This document shows, one piece after another, positions 2,721-41,740 of a DNA stretch of 42,861 bases. This DNA is from Oscillospiraceae bacterium. GTDB lineage: Bacteria; Bacillota_I; Bacilli_A; RFN20; CAG-826. Position 1 is the first letter of the stretch. The number at the start of each line of letters is the position of its first letter. The notes under the pieces are model-generated. The model ran no database searches. It saw only the letters and a list, made by a program, of their open reading frames with translations, and was not told where the DNA came from. A program made the position numbers and the translations under genes. The stretch spans positions 1 through 42,861 of the forward strand of contig CAVIPP010000002.1 of assembly GCA_963644615.1 (NCBI GenBank). Reading direction: 5' to 3'.

Positions 2721-4893
2721 TATCATTTTTTGTATATAAAACAAAACAGTTATGTTTGGCTTTATTAGCATCACGATAAGTGCTTACGCTACATTTTGCA
2801 GGTTGACCTCCAAATAATTGTAACGCTGCTATTTCTGCTGCCGGACTTAATTGTTTTATTCTTTTTTGTACAAGGGTAGAAGAAGGACGCCCAATGAATT
2901 TAGATATAAAAATAGGAGTACTGTATTTTCCTACAAATTCTGGTTCTTCGCTGTTTCCTGAACCATATAATCACTTACGACCTCATTGTTTAAAACGATC
3001 TCCAAGGACTCGGTCAGTTCACTCAATATTGTATTTTTCCGTATGTGTTATAAATTCGTCAATATCTAATATTCCTCATTGAAAACATATAGGAACAAAC
3101 TGACCATTAACAGTAAAATCATCATTTTTATTTAAATGATTTTTTCCATCGGGACGCATTTTTGCGAAGAAATGAATTAAATTATATTCATAATTTGGTA
3201 AAAATAGATGTTTAACGAATCATTTATAAGTATAAGTCGTATTATATTTAGAAATACCACCAAGGTTTCGATATCCTGATCAACCGCTGGATTTTACTTC
3301 ATAACCAAGAAGAGGTTTTTTATCTTTGTTATTATTTCTAAAATTAATAGTATACCATTTATCAAACTGTAAGGGGGATACTCATTTTGGTAGTGCAGTA
3401 GCATTTGGTTTATATGGTTGCGTTGTTTCTCCTTGACGACAGAAAACGGCATTATCTATTTGAGCATCTAAATATAACTTTATATAAGAATATGATTGAA
3501 TATCTTCTATTTTATCGCCATTATAATAATAATAAATAGTACCTTTTTTATAAGAAGCTTCAACATAGTAAAATCCTTTTTTAGCTTCTTCCTTTTCATA
3601 TAATCCACCATGATCTTGTGCGGCTTTAGAAAAATCGTCTCATGATTCGTAAGAGCCTAGTTCTACATATAACTTGCTAGGAGTATTATAAAACAATTCT
3701 AATCTAAAAACCCCGATATTAACGTATGGTTTATATATTACAACATTAGTTGATGAAATATGACCTGCAGACGACTGAAAGGTAGTTGATACGCCATCAC
3801 TTAAAGTATATGTTCCTCATTCATTATTAGCATATTGAACAGGTTTATTAGTCATATCTATTAATCTGATATTATTTCTTTGTGTGTTTACGGTATATTC
3901 AAATTCTTTGCCATCAGGTTGTCGTCAAGAATTCTTCCTTCTATAACAGTTAACAATATAATCTCGTGAAGGAACTAATACTAATTCTAAGTTTTGTTGC
4001 AGTAAATAATTCATTATTTGAACAGAAGTGTATTCTATATAATAAAAATCTTTCTTGTTGTCTTTATTTACATCATATCCGATATAAGTTCCATCAGACA
4101 AATATAAAATTCCGTTATTCTCTATTAAAGCTGCTAAAAATTTTTCATAGGGACTATATTTTGTACCAGTAGTTCCTCCTTTTATCGTAAAAAAACTTTC
4201 ATCTTTGTGTGTGTTATATTCATCCTGAATACTATCATAAGGTTCTAAATCATTTTTTGTCGCAGATATTTTTCAATATAAGTTCTCATTAATTTCCAAT
4301 TGGTTACAAAATTCATTTGCAGTTGAAAACGTTAGTGCTTCACTGTTATATATATTATCTATGCCGATTTTTAAACATTCTGGTTCTGTATCATCATATA
4401 TAATTTTTGGAGGCACGTCTTGTAAGCGCTCTAATATAGCACTAGATCCTTTAGATTGGAGAATTTTATAATCACGATAGATAACTTTTTGTTGTAGCAA
4501 TCCAGGTGATTGATATTCTAAAATAGTTCCTTTATCATCTAAAGAATATCCAGTAGAAGAATGAAAGAAAAAGAAAGAAAAATTATCTAAAGAATATGTC
4601 TGACTTGCATTTTCTCCTGTTATATATAAAGTTCCATTATCTTCTTTTACACCAGTGATATAAAACATTATATAAAAATTGCGCAAAGAGGGATTTCCTT
4701 CTATGCTTGTAATATTTTGTAAAGAAGAAATATCAGGGCGAGTAGGAATAAAAAAGCCCTTGTTTGTAATAGTTTCTTCTTTATCATATTTAAGAATATA
4801 ACTTGTATTTATTTGAAAATTGTTTGGTTTATTTGTTAATTCATATGGTTCCGAAATTGGTTGAACATAATAAAAATCTTTTTTATTTTGCAA
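2701..4893 (-). CDS. Large hypothetical protein (~730 aa), probably structural; start codon uncertain
   Basis: I translated 4272 down to 2701 in one frame and found no TAA/TAG and at least 11 in-frame TGA (for example 4273, 3925, 3817, 3640, 3382, 3280, 3220). Stop is TAA 2701-2703. The only start candidates after the upstream TAG (4948) are TTG 4893 or ATT/ATA codons; the first ATG is about 70 codons in. Confidence 0.65.
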
Positions 4894-4947
4894 ACCTCTG
4901 GCAGGACTTTCAATTATATATTGATAATAAATACGTGCGTCTGAAGG

Positions 4948-5487
4948 CTATTTACCATAACGACTTACTATTTGAAAAATATAATCTTCATAAGGATTAA
5001 TTTTTATTTTTCCTGTACAATAGGCTTCATTCGAAATAAAGGGGAGAGAACGGATATCTCTATAACAAGAAGGGTATGCTACAGTATATGCTCAAGTTAA
5101 TGTTCAAGGAAAAAACAAACCCTTGTCACAACATTGATATCAATGATTAGGATATATAGAAGAATTAACTTTAACATATGAATTATTTTTTATTTGTGTA
5201 TCATAATTTTGTTGATAGAAATCAGAATTAACCACATACAATTTTGTATACTCATCAGGCTGTGCGAAGTTAAATAAGATGGTCTTCAAATCTATGGTAT
5301 TGGCTGCAGAATCATCTTTTACCTGCTCATATGTTTTATCGCTAGCCAATGAACGACCAGAGCGGATATGAGTAGGCATCAAATTAGTAACACGTTTGCC
5401 AACTATATCACCATAAATATTAGGGCCAGCATCTTTTTCTAAAGTATTATGTATTTTTTGATAATTTAATTCATAAGTATTCGCCAT
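4948..5487 (-). CDS. Hypothetical protein (179 aa)
   Basis: Track ORF 5140..5487 extends through 3 in-frame TGA (5140, 5104, 5092) to TAG 4948-4950. Its ATG overlaps the upstream TAA (TAATG at 5485-5489). Confidence 0.7.
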
Positions 5488-6209
5488 TAATTTTTCCTCC
5501 CAAAAGCCAAACCTAAATCCTCTTTATGCTTTTGCGCACCATAACGACCAATTAAAATAGCCTCAGCCGCATCATCATTAACTCGAATTCCATATTTCTC
5601 TTTTACCATTGCCACACTAAGTTGTTTTTCTTGAATACGAGTTTTTCCGCATGTTCCCGCGTATTTTCGCCATACATTAGGACTAACAATCTCATAAGGA
5701 ATATTATTTTCAAAGCATGACACTTCAATAATTCCTAAAAGCATGGCAAGAATTTTATAAGTTAGAACAGCACCGTATTGATATTGAATATCTTCAAACA
5801 CGATGAAATCCGGTTTTCATTCTTTGACAACTATATTATTAACAAAATTTTTAATCTGTGCAAGTCTAGACGTAACGTTCCCTACAAAAGTATAAAGATT
5901 GAAAAATATAAGTTCTCCATTTTCAAAGATACTTAAACCAAAATGTTCTGTTGCTTGATCAAAAGCAATTACTCTGAAACCTTTTTTAGGAGGAACTATT
6001 GTAGGGTTGATAAATTTAATATTGACGTCGCATTGCGGGCAAGTAAAACTAGGTAAACGAAAATTGGCAAAACTAGTTTGTATACAGTGTCCTTTTGGAC
6101 AACGAATAGTAATTATACTTTCCATATTGGTATAATTACTTGCATCAACTAAACTATAACCTTTTGCTTCAACTTCTTGTCTGATATCTTCTTGTGAAAG
6201 ACGACCCAT
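5487..6209 (-). CDS. RuvC-like Holliday-junction resolvase with an N-terminal zinc-ribbon-like module
   Basis: Track ORFs 5817..6209 and 5487..5801 are in the same frame, joined by a single TGA (5817-5819). CPKGHC...CPQC precedes VIAFDQATEHFG (RuvC motif I), FEDIQ and NDDAAEAILIG (C-terminal acidic motif). Stop is TAA. Confidence 0.8.
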
Positions 6210-6388
6210 TATTTATTTCCTTTTTTCTCTTTAAGTAGTGCTTCTACGATTGCCGCCTTAATAATTAAATCACTATCCAAAATCATTTTACTAATACTGT
6301 TGCGGATTTCATTCGCTTTACTTTCTAATTCTTCGATAGTAAAATTTTCGATAGATTGTCTAAATTCTAATATTTGTTCTTTTTCCAT
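6209..6388 (-). CDS. Small acidic hypothetical protein (59 aa; below the track cutoff)
   Basis: ATG 6388 follows an AAGGAG RBS. Sequence MEKEQILEFRQSIENF...KEKKGNK. Its TAA overlaps the ATG of the resolvase gene (TAATG). Confidence 0.55.
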   Translation of the reverse strand: MEKEQILEFRQSIENFTIEELESKANEIRNSISKMILDSDLIIKAAIVEALLKEKKGNK

Positions 6389-6409
6389 AAAGATACTCCT
6401 TTATATTTA

Positions 6410-6438
6410 TATTATAGAAAAACAAAATGGTAAAAACA
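6410..6438 (-). promoter_or_regulatory. Sigma-70-like promoter for the minus-strand operon 6388 down to 2701
   Basis: On the minus strand: TTGTTT (6433-6438), 17-nt spacer, TATAAT (6410-6415). Confidence 0.45.
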
Positions 6439-6486
6439 AAAATGTTCAGTTGCATTATTCTAAAAAGATATTTTTCACGCTCGAGT

Positions 6487-6515
6487 TTGATTTTTAAAGG
6501 AGTCCTCGATATAAT
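6487..6515 (+). promoter_or_regulatory. Divergent sigma-70-like promoter for the lysis cassette
   Basis: TTGATT (6487-6492), 17-nt spacer, TATAAT (6510-6515); GGAGG RBS and ATG at 6568 downstream. Confidence 0.5.
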
Positions 6516-6567
6516 AATAATGACCATAGAAAGAATATACAGTTCTTGGCGCGGAGGAATTAAGTAG

Positions 6568-7020
6568 ATGGAATGACTCGTAGGAGGAATGTGCGTTATT
6601 GCTAATCTTATAGTGACTACAGTGGTAGGTTTATATATTAAGTCTAAATGAGAAAAACGCGCAAAAGAACAACAAGAGTATAGTGAATTAAAAGACAAAC
6701 AATTGCGTGCAGAAAGACAAGAAGATATTCTTACTAATGTAACGAAAGTTGTAAAACCCATAGAAGAAAAATTGGCAATTGTCGAGCAACAACTTGCTAT
6801 AAATGCGGAAGGAGCCTGCGCGGGTCTCAGATGTCAATTATTAGAATTCTATTATGATTGCGCTAAGAAAGGCTTCCGAACCCAAGATGATAGTGAAAAC
6901 TTTACTAATATGTATAGTGCTTATACTAAACTAGGCGGAAATTCTTTTATTCAAAAAGATATTAGTAAGTGATTCTATGAGTTGCCGCATGAATCAATAA
7001 ATGTAAAAGGAGGCAAATAA
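6568..7020 (+). CDS. Membrane-anchored coiled-coil protein upstream of the holin (possible lysis-cassette component)
   Basis: ATG 6568 lies 8 nt after GGAGGAA. It is in frame with track ORF 6703..6972 through 3 TGA (6574, 6649, 6970). N-terminal TM segment LVGGMCVIANLIVTTVVGLYI. TAA at 7018-7020. Confidence 0.65.
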
Positions 7021-7021
7021 A

Positions 7022-7402
7022 ATGCCACAAGAAATTATGAATATTATCTGATCCGCTTTAGGTGTTATCATCACAGGATTAGTAACTTTTGGAGTTACAA
7101 AATTAACTTCATGGATTAACTCTAAAATAGGAGACCAAAAAGCTGCGAACTATTTATCGACAATTGTTACTTTAGTTGGTAATGCAGTCAAAGACATATA
7201 TCAAACCTATGTTGAATCTTTAAAAACACAAGGTAAGTTTGGACCAGAAGAACAAAAAGTAGCATTGGAAAAATGCTTAAATCAAATTAAATCTCAATTA
7301 GCTCCTGATTTAATAACATATATCACAACTAATTTTGGTGACATGGATAGTTATTTAAGATCTTTAATTGAAAGCACAATTTATAATCTTAAAAATAAAT
7401 AA
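7022..7402 (+). CDS. Holin, LL-H-like family (126 aa)
   Basis: AAAGGAGG RBS, ATG 7022, one in-frame TGA (7049). N-terminal TM ALGVIITGLVTFGV, then ...INSKIGDQKAANYL...AVKDIYQTYVESLKTQGKF..., the pattern I recall for LL-H-type holins. Missed by the track because of the TGA. Confidence 0.65.
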
Positions 7403-7424
7403 ATTAAATTTGAAAATATAAAAT

Positions 7425-7446
7425 AAAAGAGTCATTCGACTCTTTT
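7425..7446. terminator. Bidirectional intrinsic terminator
   Basis: aaaagagtc (7425-7433), loop attc, gactctttt (7438-7446); lies between the convergent holin and exonuclease genes. Confidence 0.7.
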
Positions 7447-8057
7447 TAAAATAGACTTTTTGTGCTGTCCGAGTTCCAATGATCTGGATGAACGATTGGG
7501 TCCACATAGAAGAAAATATTTTTAAGCATCAGAACGTCTGCCAAGGCATCATGCGCGCCGGCGCTGCTAAAACCCAATGCCTCCGCTACTAGGGTTAATC
7601 TCCATTTTCGACCAAGTTTATCTTTTAAACCAAAAAGGTTTTGTTTTTTTGCTATTGCAATGCAATCATAATAACCATCAATGCCAGGAAAAACTTCTTT
7701 ATTAAAATAATTATAAGGTATCTTTAATACTTTGCATCGCTCATTTAACATTGGACGGTCAAAAGCTTCACCATTATAAGTTAACACTACATCAACTTCT
7801 TGTTGTTTCATCCAACAGCAAAAATCTATCAATACTTCTGACTCAGGGCGACAATTAATTAAATCCTTTGCATAAATGCCATGGACTTTACTAGCATCAG
7901 GATCAATTTTATGAGTAGTTCTAATTCTTTCGTTAAAACTATCTATTATGTTTCCCTTTTCGTCACAAATGAGCGCGGCGATTTGGACAGGTGCGGCGCT
8001 ATTCCAGTAAACGCTAGTGGTTTCTGTATCCAATATACATATTCTTTTATATCCCAT
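7446..8057 (-). CDS. DEDDh 3'-5' exonuclease (DnaQ / Pol III epsilon-like)
   Basis: ILDTETT (Exo I), YNGEAFD (Exo II), HDALADV (Exo III). No in-frame TGA; 4 Trp, all TGG. I prefer the ATG at 8057 (AGAGG RBS) over the track start at 8096. Confidence 0.85.
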   Translation of the reverse strand: MGYKRICILDTETTSVYWNSAAPVQIAALICDEKGNIIDSFNERIRTTHKIDPDASKVHGIYAKDLINCRPESEVLIDFCCWMKQQEVDVVLTYNGEAFDRPMLNERCKVLKIPYNYFNKEVFPGIDGYYDCIAIAKKQNLFGLKDKLGRKWRLTLVAEALGFSSAGAHDALADVLMLKNIFFYVDPIVHPDHWNSDSTKSLF

Positions 8058-9177
8058 AAATAAATACCTCTTGTCATTTTTTTCAAGGAATATCATTCTC
8101 TGATAGAGAAGATTCTCCTCATTGTATTGTTAAAAAATCTTTGTCTGTATAGGTTTGTCTAAGTAAATCTCTAAAAACTTCATTTCATTTTTCAGGATGT
8201 CCCCAGAATTCTACGTTGCGGCCGAATTTGAGACCAGGACCGTATTCCGTTGTTATCCATTCTAGCCAACTGTATTGAAATTTATTATGTGTTCAATTAC
8301 TAATTGTTTCGAATAATAGGAAATAAGGCGTATCCATGCGGCTCGATATCATTTTTAATTCAATGGCGATCCTTCTTTTTTTTGCATCAACAATTACCTC
8401 TTTTATGCCGTTTCAGTCCTGTAACGCCGCGTCAGGGAATTTCCAGTGTTCTTTTGCAAATATCTTTATTATTAAAGGATTTATTTTAATTTCCTTTCAA
8501 TGTTCCTTCATTTTTTCTATTGCTTTTATACAGCATGAATATTGAGTTAAAGGAATTGGCACCCATTGAAAATTTACTCCTCGTTGAATATGAAGCTTCA
8601 AGAATAACGTTAAGAGTTCTTCATCAGAAGCTAATTTTGGAAGCCAAATTGGTTCAAAAAACGCCACATTTAGAACGTTTTGCAATTCAATAAGGACCTT
8701 TTTAAGATTTTCTTTTGAAGTTGTTCATAAATTAGTATCCGTTACAATAACCCTTTTAGTGTGGAAACTATTGCGCCAATTTTGTTTAATAGGAAGTAGT
8801 TCTCCTTTGTTATTAAGAAATCGTATTTGCTCTCCTCTTTCTCAATCTGTATTCTTTTCAGGATAAAGCAAGTAATCTGGTCGACAAGCGAGCATTGCAT
8901 CCGGCATGCGCCAATTAATTTTTCTTTTATAAGCCTTACCCCACCATCGAACCGCTCCATTTGTGTAAAATTCAAATGGAGCATTTGGGGTAGTTTCGTT
9001 TTCTTTTATAATATAATAAATATCATAAGGTCTATATATATCATCTTTTTTTAAAACGAAATTAATTTGATCACCGCATTGTTTATGATAACTTGCAATT
9101 TTCATCGCATCAGGGTTAAAACAATTAACTTTTTCTTTTGCATAATAATAGTCTAAGTCTCAAATAGTAATTTTCAT
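8047..9177 (-). CDS. Hypothetical protein (376 aa), TGA-rich
   Basis: ATG 9177 overlaps the polymerase TAA (TAATG). I translated the whole frame: track fragments 8842..9105 and 8497..8685 are joined, with 10 in-frame TGA (9160, 8842, 8725, 8497, 8413, 8293, 8185, 8119, 8083, 8074) and no TAA/TAG until 8047-8049. Confidence 0.75.
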
Positions 9178-35278: not shown

Positions 35279-35545
35279 TTAAAATTTAAAAGTGTCAAAA
35301 ATCCAATCAAAAATAGAACAATTTGAATTGGTAAAAGTAGTATGATAACTACCGTAATCTTTTAAGAACGCATCTAACAATTTTTTATAGTTATTAAATG
35401 CTTCTTCAACTTCTTTTGCACGAGCGCTTCTTTGTTCACGTTTAGCCTTTTCTTCTGCTTCGTGTTTTACTAACGTTAATTCCGCGTTCTTTAAATCTTT
35501 CTCGTTATCATAAAGTTTACGAGTTTTTTCAGAATAATACTTCAT
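35279..35545 (-). CDS. Small coiled-coil hypothetical protein
   Basis: 88-aa ORF bracketed by its own promoter and terminator. Confidence 0.6.
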   Translation of the reverse strand: MKYYSEKTRKLYDNEKDLKNAELTLVKHEAEEKAKREQRSARAKEVEEAFNNYKKLLDAFLKDYGSYHTTFTNSNCSIFDWIFDTFKF

Positions 35546-36301: not shown

Positions 36302-36396
36302 TGGCAGGGGTGACAGGAATCGAACCCGTTCGAGCCCGGGTTGGAACCGGGTCGGCGGTTTTGAAGACCGCTGTGCAGCCACTACACTACACCCCT
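36302..36396 (-). tRNA. Opal-decoding tRNA (anticodon UCA), tRNA-Trp-like, with an atypical 25-nt extra arm
   Basis: Minus-strand sequence: AGGGGTG TA GTGT AGTGGCT GCAC A GCGGT CT-TCA-AA ACCGC [CGA CCCGG TTCCAAC CCGGG C TCG A] ACGGG TTCGATT CCTGT CACCCCT G CCA. The acceptor stem is 7 bp with A1:U72, the discriminator is G73, and CCA is encoded. The T-loop is TTCGATT and the anticodon loop is CU-UCA-AA. Acceptor and anticodon arms closely resemble E. coli tRNA-Trp as I recall it (AGGGGCG..., CCGGUCUCCAAAACCGG). Confidence 0.9.
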
Positions 36397-36745
36397 ATCT
36401 TGTTTTATGATAGTGCTTGATTTTGCGTCTCGCGATGGTTGTTTTACGAGCGTATGGTATAAGACTAATATTATAACCATGCGGTTGCAAGGTATTTAAT
36501 TTTAGAATCCAGTAACGTTCCTGGTCATTAAGTTTAGCGATGGGACAAAATTCAAGCACATCAAAACGAAATCCATGGTTGTCTTTATTTCAGTCGGCTT
36601 GCATTAGTTTATTTTCATGACAACCTTTTCTTAATGCTGTAAAATGTTCTTTTTTACGATGATAAACATTTTTACTTTGACCGACATAAATCTTGCCGGT
36701 TTTTAGATTTGTTATTTTATAGATACCAGCAAGAGATAAAGTCAT
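36395..36745 (-). CDS. Free-standing GIY-YIG endonuclease (116 aa)
   Basis: GIYKITNLKTGKIYVGQS...R..H...LRKGCHENKLMQAD-TGA-NKDNHGFRFDVLE...ERYWI...GYN. It has one in-frame TGA, at the aromatic position of the L-x-x-x-(F/W)-N-K motif. The TAG stop (36395-36397) overlaps the first nucleotide of the tRNA. Confidence 0.85.
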
Positions 36746-37087: not shown

Positions 37088-37684
37088 TTATTTACAAGGC
37101 TTCAAACCGTACTTTTTTTGCATAAACTCTAAAAATCATGTTTCAATATCTTCTGTTTTTAGTCCTCATGCGCTTAAACCGCGGGGATATTTAATACCAG
37201 ATACTGATGTAATTTGACGAATATGTCTGACATTTACGTGCAACATTATTCCGCAACAAGAAAAATAAAGTCCTGGTCATGCCAAATTTTCGCTATGAGT
37301 GCCAAACTTAAAGTATTTATCATCTTTATTATGAACTAACATATCATGATGCAATTCTGTCAATTCATGCCCAAGTTGTACATCAACATTGCGCTCATGA
37401 AGTTTTGCAGATAAGAAGTTTCATCAATTAATAAAGAAATTATCCTTTTCAGTAGAGTAGTGATAAATAATAATATCACCTTTTTGCATAACTACACAAC
37501 CACCTGGCACAATCAAAGGCAAACGGGAAATGTGCATACGATTCATTACATTAATATTATATTTCTTTTGTGGACTATTGCCATGGAAAGCATATTCCTT
37601 ATCTAATACAATATAATATGTGTCTTGCGGTTTTCCATGGGTAAGCATTTTAACGCCATCATCTATGCTAATTTTCTTTAACAT
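37088..37684 (-). CDS. Hypothetical protein (198 aa)
   Basis: ATG 37684 lies 1 nt after the dUTPase TAA. I translated it: 5 in-frame TGA, including the tandem pair at 37421-37426, and TAA at 37088. The track ORF 37424..37747 is its N-terminal part with a spurious upstream extension. Confidence 0.65.
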
Positions 37685-37685
37685 A

Positions 37686-38174
37686 TTATTTACCTGAACT
37701 GCCCAATTTTCCCGCACCGCGTTCAGTATCAGTAGACCATTCTTCATTAGAACACTCTCTACTTTCTACTGTTGGCATCTCGACAGGAATAAGCTGAGCA
37801 ATAGCTTTGCATGCTGGATAATAAAAAACTTTAAGGGCTTCATCAAAATAAGGTTTATCCATTGCACGCGTAATAACAACTGGGTAATCGTTGTCATTTT
37901 TAATGCAAATAAAAATAGTTCCTCTGTAATCTTTATCAATAACTCCGCAATGGACATGCATTCCGCGAGAACCTGTTGAACCTCGATCAAATGCCATTAA
38001 CCAATAGTTCCCCTCAATTACAACTCCTAAACCAGTGGAAAAAAGGAATTGGCTATGTGGTTCTAAGCGGACAAAATCTTCAATTGTATATACATCATAT
38101 CCTGCGGCATCTTCTTTCTTCGTTGGAATAACCGCATTAGACTTAAATTTAAACCATTTTAATTTACAATCCAT
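37686..38174 (-). CDS. dut: dUTPase (trimeric dUTPase/dCTP-deaminase fold)
   Basis: AAGYDV, GSTGSRG, GVIDKDYRG and C-terminal ERGAGKLGSSG motifs. No TGA. Confidence 0.85.
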   Translation of the reverse strand: MDCKLKWFKFKSNAVIPTKKEDAAGYDVYTIEDFVRLEPHSQFLFSTGLGVVIEGNYWLMAFDRGSTGSRGMHVHCGVIDKDYRGTIFICIKNDNDYPVVITRAMDKPYFDEALKVFYYPACKAIAQLIPVEMPTVESRECSNEEWSTDTERGAGKLGSSGK

Positions 38175-38770
38175 TATAAATCTCCTTTAAAAGTATCATT
38201 TATTACTAATTCTTCATCTTTATAATTCTCTTTAATAAAGTTTAATACTCATTCTTCTACTTGTCAAGATTTTATATCCCAATTAGATAAACCGGAAGGA
38301 ATCTTTCAAGAAGGTTTTGTGCTACAAAACTTTGCACGCCACTTGTTGTCTGTGATAGAGACATGCATAAATGAGAGATTACGACCGTCAACTAAGCGGA
38401 TTTTTGCGCACCCAGCTACTTTATACTTTCCATCAATTAAAATATCATTATCTTTATTACAAGCATTGATGCCTTTTTCTTTTAGTTTTTCAATTAAATA
38501 ATCATTTAATCTAGTATTAAAATGTTCATTAGAAGGTCGAATGGCAACAATAGCAAAATCATTTCTTGAGAATAATATTGGACCTCCTTCACGAGGATAA
38601 TATCAAGTAGGAATTTTTAATACTTCACAGGCGATATCATTTACATATCCTTCCTTTCCTACACTTAATAAAGTTTTTTGATGTATGCCGCATAAAAAAC
38701 CGCACTCTGAGGTGTTAATCCAGGTGTCAAGTTGTTTTATAACTCCTTCAAAAGTATCTTTAATAATCAT
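38174..38770 (-). CDS. Lipoate/biotin protein-ligase-family (LplA/BPL-like) domain protein (198 aa)
   Basis: AAAGGAG RBS and ATG 38770; 4 in-frame TGA. NDILIDGKYKVAGCA resembles the LplA/BirA NDLLxxGKKIxG motif. Its TAA overlaps the dut ATG (TAATG). Confidence 0.5.
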
Positions 38771-38868
38771 AAATTATTACTCCTTTAATAAACAGCAATC
38801 TGAGATAAATCTGATGTCAATCAGATAGATGCATCTTCTTCGCGAACAGAATGCGCAACAGGAAGCTT

Positions 38869-40290
38869 TTTACCTTGAAAAACCGCCACTTTGTTGTCAC
38901 GATAGGCTAATTTTTTATCATGTCGTTCATTATCTTCTAATTCTCATTGTGAGTTCTTGTAATTATTTATAGTATAAGATATCATCGGTCCATAAAATTC
39001 AGTTCATCTGTTAGTAACGAAACTAGCCGTTATATCTTGTTTACGATAAAGGTCATGTATTTTTTTAGATAATGTTGGTCTCATTTCGTTAGGATAAACT
39101 AATTTTATTTCACTTGCGGTCATTACAAGGCTTTGTGCAGTATATTCTGGTGTATTTTTAGTCGCTTCAACGAAGAAGTCATGAAAAATTCTAGTGGCTC
39201 ATTGTTTAACCTTTGTTTGAACTCCTGAATCTGATGAGCTGATCGCCGCAGTAGGAGTTTGATTTCATCATTTTGCACTTGGAATGCCACTTGCCTTTAA
39301 ATCAACTAATTGAGAAAAGCTTAAAGTAAGTGCGCGACCACTAGTAAAAGTATTTTTAGTAAAAAGTTCATTAATATATTTATTTATATCTGTTGTAGTA
39401 GGATGCTGACTTGCGTACATTCTTATTCGATAACTAAAACTATCTGTGATGGTTTTGGCAATAGTATCTTGAATACCATTAACTCGTCTTAAAACTAAAT
39501 TCATCGTTGGAACATTTATTTTAAGATACTTTTTTAATTCTTTACTAAATTCAACTCATGCTCCTGTTTGAGTTTGAGGGTCTCAAAACCATTTTGTTGT
39601 TTGCTCTCCAATAAATTCCCTTCAAGTTTTCTTTGTAGACTTCTTTAGATTAGCAGAAAACATCTTTTGTAAGTCTTGCCAATAAGAACTATTTTTTAAT
39701 CATTGCGCAAAAAATTGATCGATATTGCTTTGTAATTTTCCTAATTGTAAATCTATATAATCTAAAACTCTTAATGCTTCGGCAGGAGTAAAAGATCTTT
39801 GTAATATTAAAGTATCCGGAGCGCTGGCCAGACATCAACCATAATATTGACCACCCATTTCAGCATTAACTACCTTAAAACCTTGTTGTCTTGAAGCATA
39901 GGCTATATGTAATATTTCTGCGGCATCGAGCTTCATTAGTTCGTCATAAACAAAATCCTGTTCTATTTCATTTACTATTGCATTATTCTTTGTGTTCTTA
40001 GTTGTCAAAGGAGAAACACGTTTACCATAGGGTCTCAAATTCTTAAAAAACTCTTTATAAGTCTGTTCATCAAAACCATAATTAGGTTCTGTATATATCT
40101 TAAAAGATATTTCATTTAAGTTATGACTACGAATGGCCTTTAATAAATCAGGCTCACTGGTATCTTGTCCTGTATTTTTATAGGCAGCATAAATATGCGT
40201 GCGAACACGACTAAAAGAATCATTATCTGATGCGGCCGACTGCCCAATATAACATTTATTCCCGATTGTAATATAATATATATATTTCAT
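38869..40290 (-). CDS. GIY-YIG nuclease domain fused to a ~320-aa domain of unknown function (473 aa if TGA is sense)
   Basis: KYIYYITIGNKCYIGQS...AEILHIAYA...VVNAEMGG form a complete GIY-YIG domain that ends at TGA 39835. I translated onward in the same frame, through track ORF 39268..39504: 10 in-frame TGA and no TAA/TAG until 38869. No RBS or ATG supports a separate downstream gene. Confidence 0.7.
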
Positions 40291-40313
40291 ACTTTACCTT
40301 TTATTATAGTAAT

Positions 40314-40340
40314 AAAAAAGTAGAAGAGCAAATCTTCTAC
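40314..40340 (-). terminator. Intrinsic terminator directly after the structured RNA
   Basis: gtagaaga (40320-40327), 5-nt loop, tcttctac (40333-40340); a 6-nt T-run follows on the minus strand. Confidence 0.7.
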
Positions 40341-40348
40341 TTTCGGTA

Positions 40349-40660
40349 ATTATCTCATTGTAGACTTGAACTACTGAGTCCGTATCCTAATGGACAGCTT
40401 ATTCTCCTTTTGATCTCTTGTGTGCGGAGTCTTTGTCGTACGGCCTTTCGGTTGGTCGAGTTTGGAGATAACTTACCCGGAGGTTCGCTACCACACTGCT
40501 CGACCTGACTCTAAAACCACCCACATTGATTTCCATTCCGACTTCACTGACTAGGAACTTCGTTCACTCCTCACGATCCGACCTCTCTGTGCCGATAGGG
40601 GCAGGTTGCGGGCCCGATCCATCATCCTACCACGAATAATGGAGTCCCCCATGAGATAAT
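40349..40660 (-). ncRNA. Unclassified ~310-nt GC-rich structured RNA; strand inferred from the terminator and flanking genes
   Basis: G+C is visibly near 50% against roughly 30% in the flanks. A 10-bp closing helix joins 40651-40660 to 40349-40358. There is a T-arm-like hairpin GUAG-UUCAAGU-CUAC (40360-40374). Nested long-range helices include GGUCGAG/CUCGACC (40499-40505 with 40454-40460) and GAGUC/GACUC. A CC-GAAA-GG tetraloop hairpin is present. It starts at the nucleotide after the GT2 stop codon. No ORF with local codon usage. Confidence 0.6.
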
Positions 40661-41740
40661 CTAAATAAATAAATAAGAACTAGTATCTAATGAATATTTT
40701 TCATCAATGTATTGAAGATAATCATTCCATAGTATTTTTTCCATTGTAAAGTGAAATTTTTTACTAATATCTGTGCGACATTGAGAATATCAATAAGCAC
40801 GCTGACGATTCGTTGTATTTTTTACTGTTTTTCCAAAGTTAATAACCATTTTAACGAATAATTCTTCTAATTGTTGATATTTAAATCGAGTATTTTCATT
40901 AGTTAAATCTTGAAAATCGTCAGAAGAAATAATTAGGTATGTGAATACCATTGATATTATAAGCAACTCATCTCATCTTCTGCAATTTTGGTAAGAAGGG
41001 AAAAGAGCCTCTAAAACCGCGTAAGTCGAAGCAATATAGTCATCAGTATTCCAATACATGTATGTTTTACCATCATGATTCCAACGAGAAGTTACGCTAT
41101 TTGGATTTCTTTTTCATAGGTAAGCATTAATTGGCAAATGAATTGCATAAGAAGCAGGAGCAGATAAGCCTACTACTTTGCCAAAATAAGTGTCTTCAAA
41201 GGTTCTTAAAGATGGATGAAATTTAATATTATGTTGTTTAATAAAATCTCTATTTCATACTTTGCCATGCATCCAAATCATTGATGGTTGATTATGAGGA
41301 TATAAGAAATATCCTTTATCTTCTGTTATTTGTTCTTCTAAAAAATCGCACCATATATAATTTCAAGGTTGATGTTTAGCTTCTAATGAACGAATCTCAT
41401 TTAATATCTTCATCAATACGGTTGAGTCGTATAATTGATCGTCCGCATCACAGAACATTATATAAGGTAAATTAGTATGATCCATACCACATTGCCGCGC
41501 CAAACCAGCACCACCATTCTTTTCTGTTTGTATTACCTCAATAGGAAAAGAAAAGTTATGAAGAAAATCCTCTGTTAATTCCCTTCTGCCGTTTTCGTCC
41601 GCATCGTTGACAATGGTGACTTTGATAACTTTATTTAAGTTTAATCCTACTTGTATATTTATAGAGGAAAGTAAATGACCTATTACTTCTTTCTTTTCTT
41701 GATAATGCGGAATAATTATATCTAAACAAGGTAAAGTCAT
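40661..41740 (-). CDS. Family-2 glycosyltransferase (GT-A fold, 359 aa)
   Basis: IIIPHYQ...VNDADENG...MFCDADD (DxD). Track ORF 41363..41740 extends in frame; I translated it fully: 5 TGA (41363, 41255, 41114, 40973, 40790) and TAG at 40661. Confidence 0.8.

Follow-up and report, generated by a model that had tools for sequence, protein, structure and literature searches.

A candidate family of structured non-coding RNAs with a predicted five-way junction in large uncultivated gut and rumen phages

A GC-rich island between two phage genes

What is encoded by the GC-rich island of about 310 nt that follows the GT2 gene of an uncultivated phage contig? The window analysed here is the whole 42,861-nucleotide stretch (contig CAVIPP010000002.1, assembly GCA_963644615.1), and a preliminary description had placed an unclassified structured RNA in it, with two alternatives: the RNA is either tRNA-like or tmRNA-like and highly derived, or it is a large phage RNA of a new kind. 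The outline of the locus given there agrees with the data. The island, described as roughly 50% G+C in a genome of roughly 30%, displays a G+C fraction of 0.50 at positions 40400-40599, compared with 0.26-0.36 in the flanks and 0.318 over the whole window. The GT2 stop codon occupies 40663-40661, so the RNA, which reads on the minus strand to 40349, begins immediately after it at 40660. The ends pair in the perfect 10-bp helix that had been proposed, and an intrinsic terminator, comprising a hairpin and a T-run on the same strand, lies just 3' (Table 1). The folding energy of the whole 312 nt is close to that of shuffled sequences (z = -1.31; 8 of 100 shuffles fold as well). Thermodynamics alone thus makes a weak case, and the argument for structure is a comparative one.

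The phage reads TGA as sense and carries a tRNA with a UCA anticodon; a tRNA at 36302-36396 is the only one found by ARAGORN and Rfam. Five in-frame TGA codons are present in the GT2 gene, and the gene downstream of the RNA is a 501-aa frame (38785-40290, minus strand) that also contains an in-frame TGA read as sense. This gene had been described as a GIY-YIG nuclease; an N-terminal YIY...YIGQS...R..H motif can be recognised by eye, but the assignment finds no support in Pfam, PHROG or Foldseek, none of which returned a match for the protein. Its AlphaFold2 model has a mean pLDDT of 71, and Foldseek against the PDB gave nothing below E = 1. The 151-aa fragment of the downstream protein that the standard code would yield has no exact counterpart among proteins on record. 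P0072, a protein 97% identical to this neighbour of the RNA, is encoded on a 108.8-kb contig that probably carries the nearest relative of the RNA.

Table 1. Features of the candidate RNA gene and its predicted structural elements in the window.
Feature	Position	Strand	Remarks
Whole candidate RNA (312 nt)	40349..40660	minus	GC island, paired ends, R1 model match
P1 5' strand, AUUAUCUCAU	40651..40660	minus	Pairs with 40349-40358
P2 5' strand, GGGGG (family consensus xGGGU)	40646..40650	minus	Covaries in relatives
P3 hairpin, UCCAUUAUUC-GUGGUA-GGAUGAUGGA	40618..40643	minus	Loop GUGGUA at 40628-40633
P2 3' strand, GCCCG	40609..40613	minus	Preceded by junction UCGG (family UUAG)
Expansion, part 1	40526..40608	minus	Purine-rich, little predicted structure, two GUCGGA(U/A) repeats
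Expansion, part 2 (rod-like domain)	40419..40525	minus	Predicted fold
P5 arm	40386..40413	minus	Lower helix UCAAAAG/CAUUAGG, upper GGAG/CUGUCC, hexaloop AAUAAG
P6 hairpin, GUAG-UUCAAGU-CUAC ("T-arm" of the preliminary description)	40360..40374	minus	Adjoins P1 3' strand
P1 3' strand, AUGAGAUAAU	40349..40358	minus	Pairs with P1 5' strand
Intrinsic terminator	40316..40344	minus	4 nt after P1; 12-pair stem, loop of 5, T-run

Homologues, covariation and predicted architecture

Fifteen distinct homologous RNAs of 138-190 nt were identified in related uncultivated phages, whose loci are designated here by L numbers. The RNA lies downstream of GT2 orthologues in L001, L002, L004, L005, L028-L031, L035, L108 and L110, upstream of GT2 in L037 and beside a tRNA array in L007. 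Because GT2 was the route to most loci, its linkage to the RNA is partly a matter of ascertainment; L007 was reached from the RNA. Only some ten lineages of this small family have been seen. Its members have G+C fractions of 0.46-0.55 within loci of 0.33-0.39, and no reading frame conserved across them was found.

RNAalifold applied to a plain MAFFT alignment recovered P2, P3 and P4, and 15 of the 30 pairs show compensatory changes. Because MAFFT misaligned P1 and P6, an N-padded alignment was curated by hand. This alignment holds 14 sequences, among them the window copy and several closely related members, and it was adjusted manually to the structure. In it, 91.3% of cells are paired, against 66.2% after shuffling (a value of 91.3% was reached in 0 of 500 shuffles) and 31-43% when partners are slid; 28 of the 39 pairs change on both sides. 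Compensatory change in homologues, a check named at the outset, was thus found for the family helices. The strand is fixed by invariant U.G pairs in P2 and P3b, since the opposite strand would have A.C at these positions. A covariance model (R1) built from the relatives, with the window copy left out, has a sole match in the window, at 40544-40661 (21.6 bits, E 4e-5; E 2e-7 locally). Taken together, the comparative data identify 40660 to 40349 on the minus strand as the predicted gene of a structured non-coding RNA.

The predicted architecture common to all members consists of a closing helix, P1, with P2, P3, a variable P4, P5 and P6 arranged around a five-way junction. P1, of 10 bp in the window and 6-9 bp (usually 7 bp) in the 13 other aligned members, is 99% paired over the 14 members despite 10 different helix sequences. 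P2 covaries in the relatives (AAGGU/GCCUU, GAGGU/GCCUC, GAG/CUC) and is reduced in the window copy to three central G-C pairs. The lower stem of P3 also covaries, with 11 different sequences, while its tip, AUUC-GUGGUA-GGAU, is near-invariant; the window has the exact tip at 40624-40637, in which CGTGGTAG (40627-40634) is one of two YGTGGTAG sites within the window, and L004 has a broken tip (ACUC/GUCU). In the relatives P4 is a variable hairpin with a GGRANN loop, and P5, which covaries, combines an irregular helix, YYUUAAG/CGWAURR, with a stem capped by a GNRRAA hexaloop. The window copy lacks an alignable P4. Its P5 keeps the family pairing pattern (two paired positions, one unpaired, two paired, one unpaired, one paired) through compensatory changes in the lower helix (P5x); the upper stem has 4 bp with a 2-nt bulge and the loop, AAUAAG, departs from GNRRAA. 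Most members carry a UUCAAG-type loop on P6, the stem of which covaries with 7 different sequences. In the window P6 has a 4-bp stem, a G-UUCAAGU-C loop and a 1-nt spacer to P1, while the loops of relatives are 6-9 nt long and some lack UUC. The loop is not T-loop-like in L007 (UAGUGAGU) or L028 (UAAAAUU), and the L005/L008 group shows two mismatches in P6. The closing helix and the 3' hairpin noted in the preliminary description are therefore both conserved features of the family. No covariation between the P3 and P6 loops was seen in the family alignment. Tertiary pairings of J3/2 UUAG with UUAAG and of J2/4 CUC with J5/6 GAG were also considered and were rejected for want of a consistent register or covariation.

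In the window copy, the largest member, P4 is replaced by a lineage-specific expansion of ~195 nt that is absent from every relative retrieved (138-190 nt). Its first part gives a fold z of +1.87. The second, rod-like part (40525-40419) has a predicted minimum free energy of -35.4 kcal/mol (z = -2.0, equalled by 8 of 200 shuffles), and the predicted fold contains the three nested long-range helices drawn earlier, UGUGGGUG/CGCACACA (7 of 8 pairs), GAGUC/GACUC and GGUCGAG/CUCGACC. These predicted helices lie inside the window-specific expansion. The same domain holds the tetraloop hairpin CCGAAAGG, present at 40451-40444 as described, and a second GUGGUAG. An ATG frame of 45 aa at 40399-40536 is likewise specific to the window.

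TATAAT-like boxes lie 5-7 nt 5' of P1 in L001, L004, L005, L007, L008, L011, L031 and L035, so that most homologues have their own -10 box ~6 nt ahead of the closing helix and transcription would begin at P1. Upstream of the window copy there is only a weak TATTTA and no consensus promoter site, and this copy may be co-transcribed with GT2. Terminators directly 3' of the RNA are present in L007, L028, L031 and L037 as well as in the window, and a fresh TTGACA/TATAAT promoter follows the RNA in L001-L004, L007 and L028. In the L005/L008/L029/L030 group no terminator lies between the RNA and the following gene, which opens with its AUG 14-20 nt past P1, and there the RNA is formally a 5' UTR. 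From these signals we infer that the RNA is made as a separate stable species, the 3' end of which would be set by the terminator just past P1 or, in loci that lack one, by trimming back to P1.

Searches against known RNAs and the tmRNA question

Rfam 15 returned no match over the RNA, either for the whole window at gathering thresholds or for 40200-40800 at E<=10; this covers the families that had been named for checking (tmRNA, RNase P, group I, HEARO, ROOL, GOLLD, raiA) and, in the same scans, 6S and SRP. Eight homologous loci scanned at E<=1 gave nothing over the RNA, with ROOL matches elsewhere in L028 and L031. Weak matches to CRISPR-DR50, sraA, the L20 leader and CC0196 lie in the flanks or are due to chance. 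Comparison by eye with 5S rRNA, the SRP Alu domain, the conserved regions of RNase P, the K-turn, loop E and CsrA sponges (GGA) revealed partial string resemblance, with order or consensus that does not fit and with Rfam silent. A T-box leader was also rejected. Rfam gives no match, the downstream gene is an orphan and UGGU sits in the 5'-end hairpin loop rather than in an antiterminator, in agreement with the earlier remark that no properly placed T-box is present.

The phage search suggested earlier was negative for GenBank and positive for uncultivated phages, which supplied the 15 homologues: the RNA (by blastn) and GT2 (by tblastn) matched nothing among 50,697 GenBank phages. Neither an exact 22-mer from the 3' hairpin nor GT2 as a single protein was matched in IMG/VR, where a wider gapped pattern gave 64 matches, of which the true ones are four already known contigs only. 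A 26-nt degenerate pattern run against 185,579 reference genomes gave six matches, always in coding sequence, and thus no cellular copy was found. The family loop sequence had no match in the literature searched. By these comparisons the RNA represents a new family that Rfam 15 lacks and that has so far been met only in a single clade of large uncultivated phages from gut and rumen. Short stretches may already be present, unnamed, among the 8,495 anonymous structured-RNA candidates from IMG/VR (PMC10690425).

The first of the two original alternatives, a highly derived tmRNA or tRNA, is extremely improbable. Its appeal lies in a size of ~310 nt and in ends that pair, with ~7 bp in the family as in the tRNA-like domain of tmRNA. 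The 3' strand of this helix is immediately preceded by a hairpin, which in the window copy has the textbook T-loop sequence G-UUCAAGU-C. Local strings (GGGGAC, AUUCG, GGAUGGAUCG.GC), which we take to resemble Bacillus tmRNA, had been read as a further hint. All of these strings are explained as strands of family helices that covary or differ in relatives: GGGGGAC combines the 5' strand of P2 with a junction, AUUCG forms the upper end of P3, and GAUGGAUCGGGC spans the 3' strand of P3, a junction and the 3' strand of P2. As stated in the preliminary description, a G3.U70 pair is missing (U-A stands third, or C-G when counting is limited to the inner 7 bp), and so is a tag reading frame: ARAGORN makes no tmRNA call, the only frame is the 45-aa one specific to the window, and the relatives have no region of this type. 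The pseudoknot series and the long P2 helix of tmRNA are also missing. ARAGORN calls neither a tRNA nor a tmRNA at the RNA and tmRNA models give no match at E<=10 in 40200-40800, yet the same tools detect the canonical tmRNA that L007 carries alongside its member of the family. In addition, the relatives have only 138-190 nt and a predicted five-way junction, in contrast with the three-way junction of the tRNA-like domain of tmRNA. As far as sequence analysis goes, the tmRNA reading is already refuted, and the second alternative, a new large phage RNA, is the one that stands, with no Rfam family and covarying helices in homologues.

Possible roles and comparison with known systems

On balance, and with moderate confidence, we favour the explanation that the locus is an RNA gene of a new phage family, producing a separate stable RNA for which a trans-acting scaffold role is proposed. 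The specific role, a compact protein- or RNA-binding scaffold presenting tRNA-like surfaces, is tentative and somewhat unlikely as it stands. The 7-bp end helix stacked beside a T-loop-like hairpin would create one such surface, and a D-arm-like hairpin, with a 4-bp stem and a GUGGUA loop (compare GCUC-AGUGGUA-GAGC in tRNAs), could offer another. These surfaces might engage factors that recognise tRNA shape (for general background on the tRNA elbow, see PMC4810234), either processing and modification enzymes or host nucleases that target tRNA. Such a role would suit phages that invest heavily in tRNAs, tmRNA and ROOL RNA; L007 carries 27 tRNAs and a canonical tmRNA besides the family RNA, and in L028 and L031 a ROOL RNA lies 1-2 kb from it. 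Against the scaffold, the RNA resembles tRNA only in part, models of tRNA, tmRNA and YrlA all fail to score it, and neither the P6 loop (L007, L028) nor the P3 tip (L004) is kept throughout. A dedicated mimic, in which the end helix, the T-loop-like hairpin and the GUGGUA hairpin would imitate the acceptor/T-arm and elbow so that the RNA acts as a decoy for host tRNA-targeting defence nucleases or captures tRNA-processing or -modifying enzymes, is unlikely; lineage-specific expansions, such as the 195 nt in the TGA-recoded phage, would then add binding modules.

That the RNA acts in cis, as the leader of the downstream operon, seems rather unlikely. Placed at the 5' end of a transcript, it would control the conserved ~500-aa gene and those behind it, either by sensing in the manner of a riboswitch or by processive antitermination, in which the RNA would modify RNA polymerase to read through the terminator that follows; HK022 put and Bacillus EAR are the models for the latter. 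The RNA and the ~500-aa gene always share one orientation, with the RNA immediately upstream in the window, L001, L002, L004, L005, L008, L029, L030, L031, L108 and L110; the short terminator-free spacing in the L005/L008/L029/L030 group and a conserved terminator hairpin just before the ribosome-binding site in L001-type loci fit a leader as well. In the window, the T-run of the terminator ends 25 nt before the AUG with no good promoter between, and the downstream gene thus probably depends on read-through. However, in L007, L028 and L031 a dedicated promoter and terminator flank the RNA and another promoter comes after them, and the neighbouring genes differ in L007 and L037. A riboswitch expression platform needs an alternative pairing, and none between P1 or P6 and the terminator was found in L007, L028 or L031, which counts against a leader; the window offers a 5-bp option only (UCUAC/GUAGA).

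Three further explanations remain to be weighed against the favoured stable phage RNA. A ribonucleoprotein in which the RNA serves the ~500-aa orphan or GT2 as guide, scaffold or substrate is decidedly improbable: the GT2 gene, the RNA and the ~500-aa gene are tightly linked across GT2 identities of 38-56% and the ~500-aa protein matches no known fold or family, but ascertainment accounts for part of the linkage, L007 has neither gene adjoining, no variable "guide" segment is evident except P4 and the protein model resembles no RNA-binding enzyme. Self-assembly into an RNA-only particle or dimer, as a small analogue of ROOL or GOLLD, is very improbable. The neighbouring ROOL genes in L028 and L031, the numerous invariant positions in loops (some of them GNRA-like) and junctions, a pattern typical of tertiary or quaternary contacts, and the self-complementary conserved element CYUUAAGR would all suit it; this element, however, finds a better explanation in pairing to CGWAURR within the same molecule, a pairing that covaries, no intermolecular covariation was seen and 140-190 nt is far below the size of ROOL or GOLLD. 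Finally, the perfect 10-bp terminal inverted repeat and the sharp break in composition could mark a GC-rich DNA element (a foreign fragment, transposable element or recombination site), and stop-free frames of 45-75 codons could point to a small coding gene. This reading is scarcely credible, since compensatory changes keep the pairing, including G.U pairs workable on one strand only, copies are syntenic among relatives rather than scattered, the end helix differs by lineage where the ends of a mobile element would be conserved, and from one member to the next the open frames change strand and phase.

Several known RNAs invite comparison. YrlA and other bacterial Y-RNAs, like other tRNA mimics, are stable RNAs with paired ends and D-arm-like and T-arm-like hairpins, and some are phage-encoded. 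The family RNA shares the paired ends and both types of hairpin but matches no Rfam YrlA or Y-RNA model, and its D-like hairpin sits on the long P2-P3 arm, unfit for a tRNA-like module. No Ro/Rsr (TROVE) protein was found among the 25 window proteins scanned against Pfam, a scan that left about 30 other predicted proteins outside. Phage T4 species 1 and 2 (rnaC, rnaD) are stable RNAs of ~120-140 nt with paired termini, encoded in a tRNA gene cluster; the likeness is by description only, and host range and phage group differ. HK022 put and Bacillus EAR are, similarly to the family RNA, structured RNAs at the start of a transcript, with terminators and a long co-directional gene array following, but they are not known to have a dedicated terminator-plus-promoter cassette around them, they show no similarity to it in sequence or structure, and Rfam EAR is not matched. 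A tRNA mimic or a polymerase-modifying leader, if true, would represent new phage handling of host translation, defence or transcription. Clear ends, covariation that is strong and a few invariant nucleotides in the loops make the family tractable, and its size suits structure probing, crystallography, cryo-EM and pull-downs; the window copy, in a TGA-recoded phage, lends itself to comparison as a natural variant that carries an additional domain.

A further parallel in setting is with ROOL and GOLLD (RF03087, RF01998), phage-encoded RNAs found near tRNA islands that form multimeric cages; they have been known for more than a decade, and their role is undescribed even after cryo-EM structures (PMC12286853). 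Like the family RNA, they are encoded by phages or prophages, GC-rich relative to the genome, elaborately structured and often near tRNA genes (PMC12286853). In contrast, they match it neither in sequence nor in structure, and they span 550-850 nt, whereas the family RNA has 140-310 nt and a single predicted five-way junction. The family RNA sits in the "RNA islands" of large gut and rumen phages together with tRNA arrays, tmRNA and ROOL, and it adds a compact family (140-190 nt) to the phage reservoir of elaborate non-coding RNAs with open roles.

Position and composition of the window RNA

The 312-nt RNA lies on the minus strand and forms a GC-rich island (G+C of 0.50 at 40400-40599, compared with 0.26-0.36 in the flanks and 0.318 over the whole window). 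Its start was placed at 40660 because the reading frame of the upstream glycosyltransferase gene, GT2 (41740 to 40661), has its stop codon at 40663-40661; the RNA thus begins directly after this stop. The perfect end helix and the following intrinsic terminator reported in the preliminary description were both recovered, and the hairpins GUAG-UUCAAGU-CUAC and CCGAAAGG, together with the three nested helices, are all present in the sequence. The fold energy of the whole 312 nt (z = -1.31 for the minus and -0.60 for the plus strand) is by itself not convincing as a case for structure.

Coordinates and properties of the RNA elements and neighbouring features (P, helices; L, loci or contigs of related uncultivated phages)
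Feature	Position	Strand	Properties
P1 5' strand	40660-40651	minus	AUUAUCUCAU, perfect pairing with AUGAGAUAAU
P1 3' strand	40358-40349	minus	AUGAGAUAAU
P1/P2 junction			0-4 nt, usually 1-3
P2			xGGGU/GCCCx, encloses GAU-P3-UUAG
P3			lower stem covaries; tip AUUC-GUGGUA-GGAU almost invariant
P4			variable hairpin, GGRANN loop
P5 arm			irregular helix YYUUAAG/CGWAURR, covarying stem, GNRRAA hexaloop
P6			UUCAAG-type loop
P6 to P1 3' strand spacer			0-2 nt in most, 5 in L011
Expansion part 1	40608-40526	minus	purine-rich, little structure, fold z = +1.87
Expansion part 2	40525-40419	minus	rod-like, z = -2.0; holds the nested helices described earlier and a second GUGGUAG
Terminator-like hairpin and T-run	40344 to 40316	minus	12 pairs, begins 4 bases past P1
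Similar-loop terminator hairpins	window 40316-40344; L001:~3060-3090; L031:~3800-3830
UCA-anticodon tRNA	36302-36396	minus	long extra arm; ARAGORN label SeC; Rfam tRNA, 51 bits
Sole bona fide GIY-YIG domain protein	36395-36745	minus	PF01541, E 4.6e-10, 116 aa
88-aa protein	35279-35545	minus	39% identity (E 5e-16) with an L007 protein of 103 aa
Orphan pair flanking dUTPase	38174-38770 and 37088-37747	minus	distant paralogues, 23% identity, E 8e-8

Relatives, common architecture and covariation

Rfam 15 gave no match over the RNA, whether gathering thresholds or E<=10 applied, nor over the homologous RNAs of eight related loci, and neither the RNA nor GT2 was matched in GenBank phages. GT2 homologues of 38-56% identity were found at syntenic loci, where GT2 is followed by a 190-360-nt gap, then a ~500-aa protein and dUTPase, and the gap starts align with the window RNA. 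Pattern scans from a conserved stretch identified more family members in IMG/VR and in JGI metagenomes, and none in 185,579 reference genomes; a wider pattern gave no additional true match in IMG/VR. The resulting 16 distinct sequences comprise the window copy, L001, L002, L004, L005, L007, L008, L011, L028, L029, L030, L031, L035, L037, L108 and L110. The relatives measure 138-190 nt and have a G+C of 0.46-0.55, in loci of 0.33-0.39.

In every member the two ends pair into a closing helix, P1, which is 7 bp long in most. RNAalifold on the untouched MAFFT alignment of eight relatives recovered P2, P3 and P4, and 15 of the 30 pairs show compensatory changes. As MAFFT misplaces P1 and P6, an alignment was curated by hand (gaps as N, P4 region cut out; MAFFT made no change). 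In this alignment, which was fitted to the structure and includes several closely related sequences, 91.3% of the cells hold standard pairs, compared with 66.2% in column shuffles (none of 500 reached the observed value) and 31-43% when partners were slid by 1-3 columns; both sides change in 28 of 39 pairs, and the covariation score is 0.516 versus 0.149. P1 is 99% paired, with ten different helix sequences. Through compensatory changes, the P5 extension keeps its pattern ||x||x| in 12 of 14 members, among them the window copy. Additional changes of this kind affect P5 and P6 in L108 and L110. The strand is fixed by conserved U.G pairs, and no conserved reading frame was found across members.

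A covariance model built from eight relatives, excluding the window, had a sole match in the window at 40544-40661 (21.6 bits; E 4e-5 over 116 kb, 2e-7 locally). By inspection, P1, P2 (three G-C pairs), the P3 tip in its exact form, the P5 arm and P6 are all present in the window copy, and ~195 nt in two parts take the place of P4. This expansion is absent from every homologue obtained, so the nested helices are predictions only. A 45-codon ATG frame within it (40399-40536, minus strand) is conserved in no relative and has a composition unlike that of this phage's genes, and is thus probably non-coding. Of the alternatives proposed previously, a highly derived tRNA- or tmRNA-like RNA or a new large phage RNA, these data favour the latter. 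A literature search found no paper with the loop sequence; a large IMG/VR catalogue of anonymous candidates, averaging 67 nt in length, may contain fragments of the RNA (PMC10690425). The RNA, with no Rfam family, GenBank phage match or such paper, is rated a new family of no assignable known kind.

Genomic neighbourhood

The window is the part of a large phage genome given over to replication and nucleotide metabolism, and encodes a split DNA polymerase III alpha, RecJ, GyrA and GyrB. Judging from its frames, the genome reads TGA as sense: summed long open frames increase from 9,226 to 14,452 codons, and GT2 alone contains five in-frame TGA codons. The UCA tRNA is probably a suppressor tRNA for this recoding. 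GT2, assigned through PF00535 in homologues of the upstream frame, is preceded by a thioredoxin-reductase-like gene, and the RNA is followed by a 501-aa orphan and dUTPase. The orphan, previously called a GIY-YIG nuclease, does have the N-terminal motif; since it has no match in Pfam or PHROG, and its AlphaFold2 model (mean pLDDT 71) no PDB match below E = 1, the label reflects this motif alone. The bona fide GIY-YIG protein looks like a free-standing homing endonuclease, and its gene overlaps that of the UCA tRNA by one base, the last of the former and the first of the latter. The 88-aa protein is of a conserved type that travels with the RNA genes; its L007 counterpart is encoded in the stretch that separates the RNA from the tRNA array, and a comparable gene follows GT2 in L033. 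The dUTPase-flanking orphans may be nucleic-acid- or nucleotide-modifying enzymes; in L005, the position of one of these paralogues is taken by the gene past dUTPase, which encodes a lipoate-protein-ligase catalytic domain (PF21948). A Mom-family gene (PF25680; L028:1356-2498) is found immediately upstream of GT2 in L028, a hint at a DNA-modification role for the GT2 module.

L007, a 119.6-kb contig, has an identical sequence in L019 from a human gut metagenome. Its RNA lies, with no adjoining GT2, ~1 kb beyond an array (3243-8462) in which a canonical tmRNA with tag GKHKFVRARKANLVRGLAY accompanies 27 tRNA genes; a KxDG-motif ligase-like gene (369 aa) follows. In L019/L007 a Sec-like tRNA match similar to the window's UCA tRNA, at 43 bits and thus below threshold, is located ~300 nt ahead of the RNA. 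ROOL RNAs are located 1-2 kb from the RNA in L028 and L031; these full-length copies (L028:663-1263, 263 bits; L031:1589-2177, 204 bits) precede GT2 by 1-2 kb, and GC-rich islands occupy the corresponding place in L035. The more distant L033 (GT2 identity 38%) has, at the site equivalent to that of the family RNA, a different GC-rich RNA candidate of ~95 nt (L033:4090-4190) with its own terminator; the covariance model does not match it. One of its hairpin loops reads UGUGGUAG, and the GUGGUAG hairpin may therefore be a module shared beyond this family.

Candidate roles and comparison with known RNAs

A TATAAT-like box is found 5-7 nt upstream of P1 in relatives, a terminator 0-24 nt past P1 in the window, L007, L028, L031 and L037, and a new TTGACA/TATAAT promoter downstream in L001-L004, L007 and L028. 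This arrangement looks like a stand-alone RNA gene cassette. The main rival is a leader that acts in cis, with processive antitermination as its most plausible mode; it is retained because the L005/L008/L029/L030 group has no terminator between the RNA and the adjoining AUG of the next gene, and because the next gene in the window probably needs terminator read-through; alternative pairings expected of a riboswitch-type leader were looked for and not found. Even distant relatives have a similar loop in the terminator hairpin ahead of the ~500-aa gene (AGAUUUGCUCU, AGAUUUGUUCU, AGAUUGAUUUCU). This hairpin could itself act as an attenuator; in L001-type loci a consensus promoter and a ~100-nt AT-rich leader precede it.

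The most likely reading is a trans-acting stable RNA, in which the invariant loops and junctions CGUGGUA, UUAG, UUAAG/CGWAU, GNRRAA and UUCAAG would create a compact fold and a putative binding surface. A tmRNA was rejected: the family is a five-way junction of ~150 nt without tag frame, pseudoknots or, as previously noted, a G3.U70 pair. ARAGORN reports no tmRNA in the RNA region, and the tools silent on the RNA do detect the canonical L007 tmRNA, which co-occurs with a family member. The strings reminiscent of tmRNA make up strands of the P2 and P3 helices, and they covary or differ in relatives. For the trans-acting RNA, a tRNA-shape mimic or decoy is our preferred, if rather doubtful, guess, prompted by the tRNA-like features and the tRNA, tmRNA and ROOL neighbourhood; UGGU of the RNA is complementary to the ACCA 3' end of tRNAs. 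No tRNA-type model scores the RNA, and it departs from tRNA in P6, without UUC in L007 and L028, and in the P3 tip, broken in L004. The resemblance to tRNA is partial, comprising the 7-bp end helix, the adjoining hairpin with its T-loop-like sequence and a D-arm-like hairpin with a 4-bp stem and GUGGUA loop.
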